Part shown: positions 3,524-24,543 of the stretch, one piece after another
Layout: each line of letters begins with the position of its first letter
How positions within the stretch are numbered: position 1 is the first letter of the stretch
Origin: Candidatus Omnitrophota bacterium
Lineage (GTDB): Bacteria > Omnitrophota > Gorgyraeia > Gygaellales > Profunditerraquicolaceae
NCBI GenBank assembly: GCA_022710715.1
Contig: JAKLGJ010000001.1
Location: 554,041-618,040, forward strand
DNA: 64,000 nt
Direction of reading: 5' to 3'
Translations under genes and position numbers: made by a program
The notes under the pieces: generated by a model
The model's input: only the letters and a program-made list of their open reading frames with translations
Databases searched by the model: none
Told to the model about the DNA's origin: nothing

Positions 3524-3890
3524 CTCTCAAGGCAAGTAGCGTAAGCCGAGTTCTGTCTGGAGTGGTTATTCCTCTCGACCCCGGGGTTACCCGCCGGGGC
3601 TTTAGCAGCCTACCCGAAACTGATAACGGGACGAGCCATCCCATCGTTTCCTATTCGGCCTTGCTCCGCGTAGAGATTGCGACGTTTCACTTCGGCCGGG
3701 GACGTTCCCCAAGGTACCACCCCTGGTACAGGGGTGGTACCTTGGGGAACGTCCCCGACTTATTCGTCTCTGTAGCTCTGATCCTCGCAGAAAACTCTGC
3801 GGGCAGGATGTTATCCGCTACGCTGCTCTCTGGAGCTCGGACTTTCCTCCCCGTTCGCACGGGGCAACCACTGCTACTTACCTTTGAGAA
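3524..3890 (-). ncRNA. rnpB: RNase P RNA, bacterial type A
   Basis: Reverse complement contains GGAGGAAAGUCCGAGCUCC (P4 5' strand), GGAGCAAGGCCGAAUAGG, GGGUAGGCUGCU and ACAGAACUCGGCUUA (P4 3' strand). These match the E. coli M1 RNA conserved blocks in the same order. P1 is formed by GGUAAGUAGC / GCUACUUGCC. Ends are approximate to a few nt. Confidence 0.8.
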
Positions 3891-6679: not shown

Positions 6680-6722
6680 AAAATAAAAAAACCGGATCGC
6701 CTTTTCTTTTTCGGCAACCCGG
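6680..6722 (-). terminator. terminator-like hairpin plus U-tract inside the 5' leader, 28 nt upstream of the 400-aa gene ATG (attenuator candidate)
   Basis: Minus-strand RNA CCGGGUUGCC-GAAAAAGAAAAG-GCGAUCCGG (8/10-bp stem) followed by UUUUUUUAUUUU. It lies downstream of the predicted promoter and directly before the RBS. Confidence 0.4.
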
Positions 6723-6863
6723 ATATAGTTCGGAATTCAAAACTATTTTACCGTGGCTTTCCTGGCCTCACCCCTTCGGTCCGTCTTTATCGATGCCTCT
6801 CCCCCCAAGGTTCGGCTTTATCGATAAGAATCGAGTATTACTGATTTAAATATGTGTGATTTA

Positions 6864-23178: not shown

Positions 23179-23205
23179 TTAGCAATCTTACCATCAGAGT
23201 GCTAA
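23179..23205. promoter_or_regulatory. CIRCE operator (HrcA binding site)
   Basis: TTAGCAATC-N9-GAGTGCTAA against consensus TTAGCACTC-N9-GAGTGCTAA. It lies between the -10 and the groES start. Confidence 0.8.
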
Positions 23206-23232
23206 TTATAGTGAAATTGCGCGGATTGTCAA
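23205..23232 (-). promoter_or_regulatory. groESL sigma70 promoter (TTGACA-16-TATAAT)
   Basis: Minus strand reads TTGACAatccgcgcaatttcacTATAAT. The -10 abuts the CIRCE left arm. Confidence 0.65.
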
Positions 23233-23245
23233 GCATTTTTTTGGC

Positions 23246-23296
23246 AAAAAAAAGACGGTTCTATTTTTCAAAAATAGAACCGTCCCCTTTTTTGTA
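23246..23296. terminator. bidirectional intrinsic terminator (terminates the tandem-repeat protein gene on the minus strand)
   Basis: Perfect 15-bp inverted repeat GACGGTTCTATTTTT-c-AAAAATAGAACCGTC, flanked by an A8 run on one side and CCCCTTTTTT on the other. Confidence 0.65.
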
Positions 23297-23315: not shown

Positions 23316-23933
23316 TTACTTGTTTTTAAAACCGTTCTCGGGATCCCAGGTATGCCCTTGATCATGATTGCCGAAAGGCGTGCTGGTATCGCCGCAGTCC
23401 GTACAAGAGGTATCCGATCCTCCGGAGCCGCCGCCTTCGGTATTGCCCCCGAATGGACCATAACCACCCCGTGGTTCATCGGTGAACGTGAACGGCCGGG
23501 CAGGCAGTATTGTTGCGCCTGTCGGTCTGGCACTTTCATAGGTCAGGTCCGGGACGTTGCCCGGATTGATGTACGTTGAACGCGTGCCGCGGTCAGGGGT
23601 AACTATTTCGTAGGTTGAATCCGGCACATTGCCCGGATTGCTGTAGGTTGAACGCATGCCGCGGTCAGGGGTAGCTATTTCGTAGGTCGAATCCGGAACG
23701 TTGCCCGGATTGACGGAAGGCCGTATGCCGTTATTCGGGGTGGCCGTTTCATAGGTTGAATCCGGCACATTGCCCGGATTATGGAAACTCCTGCCGGAAA
23801 AAGAGGGCATAGTGTTTGAGTACGGAGAACCTTCGAATGTATCCCTTTCGGCCAGAGCATCGCTGATAACCGTCAGACAACAGGCCAGCGTTGCACTGAC
23901 TGCGATACCCAACCACGCCCGCACTTTGATCAT
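23316..23933 (-). CDS. secreted tandem-repeat protein (4 x NPGNVPDSTYE-type repeats, Gly/Ser/Thr-rich C-terminus)
   Basis: 205 aa after moving the start to MIKVRAWLGIAVSATLACCLTVISDALA (signal peptide; ATG at 23933 preceded by AAAGGAGG). Repeats begin at aa 52, 75, 99 and 123. Confidence 0.6.
   Translation of the reverse strand: MIKVRAWLGIAVSATLACCLTVISDALAERDTFEGSPYSNTMPSFSGRSFHNPGNVPDSTYETATPNNGIRPSVNPGNVPDSTYEIATPDRGMRSTYSNPGNVPDSTYEIVTPDRGTRSTYINPGNVPDLTYESARPTGATILPARPFTFTDEPRGGYGPFGGNTEGGGSGGSDTSCTDCGDTSTPFGNHDQGHTWDPENGFKNK
23500..23780. repeat. four tandem DNA repeats of about 69-72 bp inside the repeat-protein CDS
   Basis: Iterated ...ggcacattgcccggattg(c/a)tgta(g/c)gttgaacgc(g/a)tgccgcggtcaggggta(a/g)ctatttcgtaggt(t/c)gaatcc... 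with a few substitutions per copy. Confidence 0.6.
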
Positions 23934-23958
23934 GGAGACCTCCTTTAAACAGCCGGCT

Positions 23959-24226
23959 AAAAGAAAAAACCCTAAGGACACCATTTCCTTAGGGTTGTAC
24001 TCGATGGTATGCCTTTGGTAGCGCAGCCTTCCACAACACATCCGATCGAGCACCTGGCGCAATCAGAATGTGCGCCAGTGCACTGCGGGTGCAGTGGAAC
24101 TGTCACTTTGCTTCCGGGGCGCTTGCGCGTTACCCGGAAGTCCCGCCTGTTGATCTTGCGTATCTTTTCGCGGGACGTCCCCCGATCACTCGGGGTTTGC
24201 CTTTTTCAACGGGTTTCTACACTGAC
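23959..24226 (-). ncRNA. candidate structured 5' leader or small RNA (about 270 nt) ending in an intrinsic terminator 25 nt before the repeat-protein ATG. Its 5' part resembles a c-di-GMP-I (GEMM) aptamer half
   Basis: Predicted promoter TTGAAT-16-TATACT at 24233-24260 (minus strand). RNA begins ...GUUGAAAAAGGCAAACC-CCGA-GUGA-UCGG-GGGACG (compare Vc2 GGCAAACC-AUUC-GAAA-GAGU-GGGACG). It ends in CCCUAAGG-AAAUGGUGU-CCUUAGGG-UUUUUUCUUUU at 23959-23994. Confidence 0.3.
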
Positions 24227-24312
24227 AAAAAAAGTATAGCACATTTGCGCAAAAATTCAAGTTGTGCAATTGGGCTCTTTGTCAACACAGTGCCGGGGGC
24301 GCGGGCAGGGTA

Positions 24313-24543
24313 TTACTGAATGACTGCAAGCAGGTCTCCGGGCTTGACCGTATCGCCTTCTTTAAAGAAGATCTCGGTCAGGATGCCGGTTGCCGGGCTG
24401 GGCAGGTTGTACGCGGCTTTATCCGTGGTGAGTTCGACCAGGTCCGCTTTCTCCTTCACCTGGGCTCCGGGCTGGAAATACCAGAATGAAAGCGTGGCTT
24501 TTTCGATGGATTCACCGAGCGTCGGAACAATAACTTGTATCAT
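24313..24543 (-). CDS. stand-alone lipoyl/biotinyl attachment domain protein
   Basis: 76 aa. MIQVIVPTLGESIEKATL...LVELTTDKAAYNLPSPATG is the single-hybrid-motif lipoyl domain with the modified Lys in TDKA. Confidence 0.7.
   Translation of the reverse strand: MIQVIVPTLGESIEKATLSFWYFQPGAQVKEKADLVELTTDKAAYNLPSPATGILTEIFFKEGDTVKPGDLLAVIQ

Follow-up and report, generated by a model that had tools for sequence, protein, structure and literature searches.

The window analysed here is the whole stretch of 64,000 nt, and all the elements noted in it lie on its minus strand at the coordinates given. A structured leader RNA, about 268 nt long from promoter to terminator, precedes an open reading frame that runs from ATG 23933 to a stop at 23316. 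An SD sequence, AAGGAGG (23945..23939), stands before the ATG, and SD and gene together span 23316..23945. The product of 205 aa has a signal peptide, and a 24-aa repeat (NPGNVPDSTYE...), corresponding at the DNA level to a 72-nt unit, occurs in it 3.3 times. Among 5.8 billion proteins no homologue was found besides the protein itself, which is thus an orphan, and no Pfam domain was detected in it; without homologues, it offered no route to orthologous leaders. The RNA and its gene are flanked by a 76-aa lipoyl-domain gene on one side and by groES/groEL on the other. Between the repeat-protein gene and groES we observed a 14-bp hairpin (23254..23284) and a perfect sigma-70 consensus, TTGACA-16-TATAAT (23232..23205), which suggests that the hairpin is the terminator of the repeat-protein gene and the consensus a separate strong promoter of groESL. 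A weak match to mir-3122 in 23205-23292 was dismissed as spurious. Similarly, the 3′ end of the cobalamin riboswitch model gave a truncated match at 24312..24350 (15.5 bits, E = 0.1), which falls inside the end of the lipoyl-domain gene and was judged to be due to chance.

A consensus scan placed a sigma-70-like promoter at 24260..24233, composed of TTGAAT (24260..24255), a 16-nt spacer and TATACT (24238..24233), with 9/12 consensus matches and a TG extension before the -10; the same boxes had been proposed in an earlier sequence-only reading. Transcription would start near 24226. Several relatives of this leader (L149-L153, L163 and L176, see below) carry TTGAAA...TATACT upstream of their own aptamers at a similar distance. 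At the other end of the RNA, the clean intrinsic terminator of that reading was recovered at 23996..23959: an 11-bp stem, AACCCUAAGGA/UCCUUAGGGUU (23996..23968), with a loop AAUGGUG and a hairpin energy of about -16.8 kcal/mol, is followed by UUUUUUCUUUU (U6CU4). The U-tract does end close to the start codon, 23 nt before the SD/ATG, the ATG itself being at 23933 and not at 23934. The RNA between the two signals, put at about 270 nt in that reading, is structured, as had been noted there for a GC-rich region: its folding energy was -114.4 kcal/mol against -86.0 kcal/mol for shuffled sequences (z = -5.6).

Within the leader we found the motif GGCAAACC-CCGA-GUGA-UCGG-GGGACG at 24201..24176; the more general pattern GGCAAACC-N8-24-GGGACG occurs once in the 64 kb, against 0.03 expected by chance. 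The RNA was then compared with R1, a covariance model with a four-way-junction structure built from 16 metagenomic relatives (alignment A1), from which the window was left out. The match covered positions 1-136 of the 136 in the model (24214..24012, 203 nt) with 84.1 bits and E = 2.6e-20, no non-canonical pair was flagged, and the window reached the highest possible score in a pairing-logic parser. Judged from its sequence, the leader RNA is a complete class I c-di-GMP-type aptamer of a four-way-junction subgroup, in which the conserved core is split by two extra hairpins. The suspected 5′ element of a class I c-di-GMP (GEMM-I) riboswitch, with a terminator platform before a gene for a surface or secreted protein, has in this way been completed. 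The 3′ half was unrecognisable by eye only: it is present, displaced by a 65-nt insert. The reservation that the RNA might be divergent or unrelated was given up, as P1, P1a, GCAAAG, P1b and the C92 tail can all be recognised in canonical form.

The elements of the aptamer follow one another in the order known for the class. The P1 5′ strand (UG, 24208..24207) pairs with CA at 24017..24016, and the A-rich joining strand behind it ends in G20 (24201). G21, C22, the AAA strand and the distal P1a, CCCCGA-GUGA-UCGGGG, occupy 24200..24180, the loop being a GNRA of the GYRA type; P1a thus reads GGC-AAA-CCCCGA-GUGA-UCGGGG-GAC, with the GC before AAAG closing its base. Two hairpins are inserted after the GAC strand of the former internal loop, X (GUCCCGC...GCGGGAC, 24176..24140) and Y (UUCCGGG...CCCGGAA, 24139..24112). 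Together they amount to 65 nt between C44, in the GAC strand of the P1a internal loop, and G45, and in the simplest reading they turn the 3x3 internal loop of P1a into a four-way junction. In the following GCAAAG junction (24111..24106), G45 and C46 close this four-way junction with G21 and C22, and A47, A48 and A49 come next. P1b (24107..24020) is made of the base pairs AGUG/CGCU, CAG/CUG and UUCC/GGAA. Its tip holds an insert of about 63 nt with two hairpins (24096..24081 and 24080..24051) and the 5′ strand of a helix, H, described below; long P1b tips are also found in relatives, for example L149-L153. After the P1b 3′ strand comes the aptamer tail ACCAAAGG (24019..24012), which consists of A at position 91, C92 (24018), the P1 3′ strand CA, paired with UG, and AAGG.

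Only about half of the c-di-GMP-I members have a tetraloop receptor in P1b. No such motif was seen in P1b of the window aptamer, which is not disqualifying because its loop, GUGA, is of the GYRA type, for which the receptor is almost never present (Weinberg 2007, PMC1950547). The same work describes a linker that is virtually always AAA and a P1 formed by a 2-bp and a 6-bp stem with a 3-nt internal loop between them, and mentions no insert resembling X/Y (PMC1950547). Two other pairings were considered and set aside. The Rfam alignment to the GGC variant implies a 'mini-aptamer' with P1 = GUUGA/UCAAC and a 3-bp second stem; this was rejected, as UCAAC belongs to the loop of X, which is not conserved, and the true P1b and tail are located further downstream. 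Closure of P1a by G21-U and C22-G39, with X/Y beside A47, is less likely, as U40-A and G39-C/U act as the base of X, and the fact that RF01051 pairs the GC preceding AAAG counts against it.

At gathering thresholds, Rfam reported for the whole window an RNase P RNA and four tRNAs only, and nothing at the leader locus. The RNase P RNA, of bacterial class A (3525-3884, minus strand, 170.5 bits), holds in one stem a long, perfectly palindromic hairpin insert (ccccaagguaccaccccuguaccaggggugguaccuugggg). RF01051, the c-di-GMP-I family with a gathering threshold of 35 bits, had no match in the window. A permissive search of 23850..24350 returned c-di-GMP-I-GGC (RF03167) at 24210..24153 with 25.9 bits, for a gathering score of 59; the alignment covers the 5′ half only and replaces the 37-nt second hairpin of the model by 15 nt. 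On its own, this match would suggest half a riboswitch, as the sequence-only reading had it. c-di-GMP-II (RF01786), 6S RNA and SRP RNA gave no match in 23850..24350 at E <= 10 and none in the window at E <= 1. The Rfam check proposed beforehand hence returned nothing at gathering level and a single sub-threshold match, to the GGC variant; taking the lack of an Rfam hit as counter-evidence would be a false negative here, since Rfam is silent at gathering level on a full aptamer.

RF01051 was also scored on 20 relatives. Nine of them lay above the gathering score (35-47 bits) and 11 were missed; in the alignments P1a, X and Y were skipped as one long local insert, and the GC of GGCAAA was paired with the GC before AAAG. 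As RF01051 passes these 9/20 with this GC pairing, the relatives are class I c-di-GMP riboswitches, and its failure on the window RNA is attributed to the two large inserts. One might still see in the missing gathering-level match, and in a downstream gene that is an orphan, the signs of a decayed relic or of a chance resemblance without function. This is hardly credible in view of an 84-bit, full-length match to a model that excludes the window, with all modelled pairs canonical and the pocket intact, and of the fold z-score of -5.6.

Relatives were sought by DNA pattern, the downstream protein being an orphan. A general 15-base pattern run on viral contigs gave only chance matches, mostly in coding sequence. 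On metagenome contigs, the 20-base pattern AAAGGCAAACC-N8-24-GGGACGTCC gave 56 loci, about 45 of them with the exact 12-nt spacing of the window. Their common layout is GGGACG, X (UCC...GGA), one nucleotide (C/U), Y, GCAAAGCC, P1b and a GCCGAAG tail, which is also the layout of the window RNA. Neither the length nor the sequence of the X and Y loops is conserved. We then examined covariation in two sets, together about 85 relatives, and found it strong in every helix, X and Y included. In the metagenome set A2 (45 distinct sequences), 94.2% of the cells were paired and 25/34 pairs were compensatory, 0/500 shuffles were as good, and slid controls reached 30-48%. The genome set A3 (44 sequences), which shares no sequence with those used to build R1, gave 95.1% paired cells, 26/34 compensatory pairs, 0/500 shuffles as good and slid controls of 28-50%. 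Fitting both alignments to the model biases them towards its structure; the margins are nonetheless large.

Helix by helix, the P1 pair varies among CG, UA, AU and UG, and four to five of the six pairs of P1a covary. In hairpin X covariation was seen at the three outer variable pairs, the closing pair is G-C or, in 5/41 and 9/42 sequences, G-U, and the base GUCC...GGAC is invariant in the subgroup, while hairpin Y shows compensatory changes at all five modelled pairs in both alignments. The 3′ helix and a tetraloop receptor in it had been singled out in advance as a test; the helix, P1b, is present and its base pairs covary, and the receptor is absent, as expected with a GUGA (GYRA) loop.

The pattern GGCAAACC-NNNN-GNNA-NNNN-GGGACGTCC, scanned over one genome per species, matched 42 loci, and 40 of these were confirmed by R1. 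All 40 belong to metagenome-assembled genomes (MAGs) of Ca. Omnitrophota or labelled uncultured Planctomycetia/Planctomycetales; the other two, in Alphaproteobacteria, were not confirmed. Some genomes have several copies, and tandem copies also occur. Two aptamers were seen per locus in L212 (2706-2989), L216 (2842-3121), L213 (3879-6343) and L206 (631-1042), those of L212 and L216 being adjacent, like class I c-di-GMP riboswitches in other phyla. In L132 (3133-3221, plus strand) and L133 (4361-4449, minus strand) a weaker R1 match (31.7 bits, 89 nt) lies about 3.6 kb from the main aptamer of the same contig and is short enough that it may be an ordinary class I aptamer lacking X/Y. The genes downstream of the relatives encode PilM (three loci), a subtilase, a PAS-GAF-HD_5 protein, a PAS histidine kinase, a cNMP-binding protein and, in many cases, signal-peptide proteins without domains; this is the typical regulon of the c-di-GMP-I class. 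In the searchable literature we found no description of an insert-bearing (X/Y) GEMM-I subgroup, an absence which is no proof of novelty, nor of riboswitches in Omnitrophota or Planctomycetes. The X/Y four-way-junction subgroup of this known riboswitch class is apparently undescribed so far; since some of its members pass the Rfam threshold, they may already be in the Rfam full alignment, unremarked.

The window RNA has G20 (24201), A47 and C92, which we take to be the c-di-GMP pocket of the Vc2 crystal structures. In the genome set, where these positions were free of any constraint from the search pattern, position 20 is G in 43/44 sequences, position 47 is A in 44/44 and position 92 is C in 41/42. 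Because these pocket residues are conserved, c-di-GMP is the ligand expected from the sequence. An A at position 20 specifies c-GAMP, and the c-GAMP (GEMM-Ib) type was rejected, the window and 43/44 subgroup members of the genome set having G20 and not A20. Genes for GGDEF and PilZ domains have been reported from Omnitrophota (bioRxiv 10.1101/2023.11.21.568195). A motif search for GGDEF, EAL and HD-GYP in the 64-kb window found no GGDEF or EAL gene, and one weak EAL-like string.

The X/Y subgroup could instead recognise a ligand different from c-di-GMP, for example another cyclic dinucleotide, or need a second input bound by X/Y. X and Y are indeed kept as helices on an invariant GUCC...GGAC base in a lineage-restricted group, and the class is known to have variants whose specificity has changed, namely the c-GAMP type (A20) and, in Rfam, GGC and UAU. 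We consider this improbable, however, since nearly all members are of the c-di-GMP type at all three specificity positions, the X/Y insert leaves the P1a internal loop on the side facing away from A47, the X/Y loops are unconserved in length and sequence, and the genes downstream of the relatives form a typical c-di-GMP regulon.

Taken with its position before the repeat-protein gene, the leader very probably acts in cis, as a class I c-di-GMP riboswitch governing transcription of this secreted-protein gene through the intrinsic terminator. A stand-alone small RNA of about 268 nt, acting in trans or as a c-di-GMP sponge, with any effect on the downstream gene incidental, would likewise be bounded by a discrete promoter and a strong terminator, and relatives of the L150 type, where an extended -10-like sequence follows the terminator, could be separate units. 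Yet the 23 nt from U-tract to SD/ATG leave no space for a promoter; as no second one has room between terminator and SD, the gene depends on read-through. Moreover, 297/309 members of the class are in a 5′ regulatory position (PMC1950547). The small RNA that the sequence-only reading had allowed for on an equal footing is accordingly highly improbable.

We then analyzed how the cis-acting riboswitch could act on its terminator. The terminator starts 15 nt past the aptamer end, with no overlap, and a terminator was present within 150 nt of the aptamer in 34/72 family members. The terminator stem CCCUAAGG/CCUUAGGG is common to the window and several unrelated members. In the ligand-free minimum-energy fold, the 5′ strand of H, CUCGAUCGGAUG (24050..24039), pairs with the linker CAUACCAUCGAG (24011..24000); the duplex has -15.2 kcal/mol and 7/2000 shuffles were as good. 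We infer a role of this 5′ strand in switching, the linker serving either as the H 3′ strand or, through AUACCAU, as the putative 5′ strand of an antiterminator. The unconstrained fold (-113.6 kcal/mol) lacks P1b and P1, H encloses the aptamer 3′ strands, and the terminator forms. Enforcing the aptamer gave -103.8 kcal/mol, about 10 kcal/mol less stable, a modelled cost within the range that tight ligand binding could pay. In the aptamer-enforced nascent transcript, the freed AUACCAU pairs with AUGGUGU of the terminator loop and the pairing extends into AAGG/CCUU. More generally, the terminator loop and 3′ arm (23984..23971) are able to pair with 24018..24004, and the antiterminator duplex of CCAAAGGCAUACCAU with AUGGUGUCCUUAGG reaches -15.8 kcal/mol, with 68/2000 shuffles as good (p about 0.03, a modest excess). 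For both H and the antiterminator, each partner is the best available in the whole leader.

The terminator was favoured at equilibrium in the free state (-113.0 versus -104.0 kcal/mol, a difference of 9.0) and with the aptamer enforced (-103.0 versus -97.4 kcal/mol, 5.6). Equilibrium folding was therefore discarded as a guide to switch direction, being uninformative when the terminator is favoured in all states. Since the terminator wins thermodynamically in both states, the antiterminator can act only as a kinetic trap. Such a trap would probably be effective, because the terminator 5′ arm would lie in the antiterminator loop without spacer, where its nucleation is sterically blocked. No close relatives sharing the H/antiterminator platform of the window were found.

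Both polarities occur in the c-di-GMP-I riboswitch class. For the window RNA we favour an ON switch, in which c-di-GMP would induce read-through, at close to even odds from these models. Without ligand, H would form, which is incompatible with P1b and P1 and would hide the linker; the terminator would then form and transcription stop. With c-di-GMP bound, the aptamer would be locked and H blocked, leaving the linker AAGG-C-AUACCAU free to pair with AUGGUGU-CCUU, in the terminator loop and 3′ arm, while the remainder of that arm is still to be transcribed. Terminator formation would be delayed, and read-through would result.

The same riboswitch might work with the opposite polarity. In that case the ligand-free tail and linker (CCAAAGGCAUACCAU) would pair with the terminator loop and 3′ arm in a 13-bp antiterminator and the gene would be transcribed, whereas c-di-GMP would lock the tail into P1 and the pocket, allow the terminator to form and stop transcription. 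The best leader-wide partner of the terminator loop and 3′ arm (-15.8 kcal/mol) indeed includes the tail with C92 and the P1 3′ strand. Relatives speak for such a design too: the terminator hairpins of L156 and L162 each contain a sequence fully complementary to the aptamer's own junction, GGCUUUGC to GCAAAGCC and AGCUUUGC to GCAAAGCU, and this matching, compensatory change between the two points to an OFF-type antiterminator there. In all unconstrained folds of the window RNA, however, H already holds the linker when the terminator loop is transcribed, and the terminator forms; the state with the 13-bp antiterminator lies 12 kcal/mol above H plus terminator, and the nucleotides locked by the bound aptamer take part in only 2/13 pairs. 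We thus regard the OFF direction as rather unlikely and keep it as an alternative because the antiterminator touches the aptamer tail and L156/L162 show an OFF-type design.

A different arrangement was observed in L138, L150, L188, L191, L193 and L219. There, CCUUUAUCGGC occurs downstream of the aptamer and is complementary to the 5′ GCCGAUAAAGG of the same RNA, a stretch comprising the P1 5′ strand, the joining strand and G20-C22. A terminator follows CCUUUAUCGGC in each, and in L138, L150 and L188 an extended -10-like TGNTATAAT comes after it. RNAs of this kind use a different platform and may be self-contained units with their own promoter and terminator.

R1 also matched a second place in the window, at 6829..6708 (minus strand), with 27 bits; RF03167 gave 24.4 bits there, below its Rfam gathering score. 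This aptamer-like RNA has G20, A47 and C92; in place of G21-C46 it carries the reversed pair, C-G (AAAGCCGAACC / GGAAAGCC), and AUCGAUAAAG is repeated inside it. A terminator, CCGGGUUGCC-11 nt-GGCGAUCCGG-U7 (-17.6 kcal/mol), reaches about 6685, and its predicted 5′ arm is the aptamer's own 3′ strand, a classic ON design as modelled. The ON design of this second aptamer in the same window is among the points for which ON is favoured for the main leader. The gene that follows (6651-5449, minus strand) encodes a 400-aa secreted protein without Pfam domain, which suggests that the organism has a small set of secreted orphan proteins under c-di-GMP control.

With the c-di-GMP-I riboswitches (GEMM-I, RF01051; e.g. 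Vc2 of Vibrio cholerae) the window RNA shares P1, the GGCAAACC...GGGAC P1a with a GNRA loop, GCAAAG, P1b and G20/A47/C92, as well as its 5′ UTR position and terminator platform upstream of extracellular, pilus or signalling genes. It differs from them by the 65-nt X/Y insert between C44 and G45 with its four-way junction, by the extra 63 nt or so at the P1b tip, by the lack of a tetraloop receptor and by a terminator that does not overlap the aptamer. With c-di-GMP-I-GGC (RF03167) it has in common the AAAAAGGCAAACC...GGGACG sequence, hence the best Rfam match of 25.9 bits; membership was rejected, as that model has G47 (consensus GACGC-GAA) where the window has A47, and the score stays far below the gathering 59. 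The c-GAMP (GEMM-Ib) riboswitches of Geobacter, often terminator-based ON switches and defined by A20, belong to the same fold family. Cobalamin and TPP riboswitches, with their variable peripheral stems, similarly have a conserved ligand core that tolerates peripherally inserted hairpins; in contrast to those stems, X/Y is a fixed hairpin pair with an invariant GUCC/GGAC base, found only in Omnitrophota and Planctomycetia-labelled genomes.

What is known of ligand sensing in the c-di-GMP-I class is unchanged by this finding. It does show that the P1a internal loop of a class I aptamer tolerates a two-hairpin insertion with the pocket intact, which is useful for structural work and biosensor engineering. 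It also reveals an annotation blind spot: Rfam is silent on the window RNA and misses about half of the relatives, and because the standard model misses these RNAs, the c-di-GMP regulons of Omnitrophota and related genomes are under-called. Further, X/Y aptamers might be a functionally distinct subclass, with altered affinity or kinetics, a second input or another cyclic dinucleotide, or trans-acting c-di-GMP-binding RNAs where they have their own promoter and terminator. We think this quite unlikely; if true, it would give access to the c-di-GMP regulons of a phylum that is uncultivated and in part predatory or ultra-small, and in which few c-di-GMP receptors are known. Finally, both candidates in the window precede genes of secreted orphan proteins, which gives these proteins a first functional context, as surface or extracellular factors that would be controlled by c-di-GMP.
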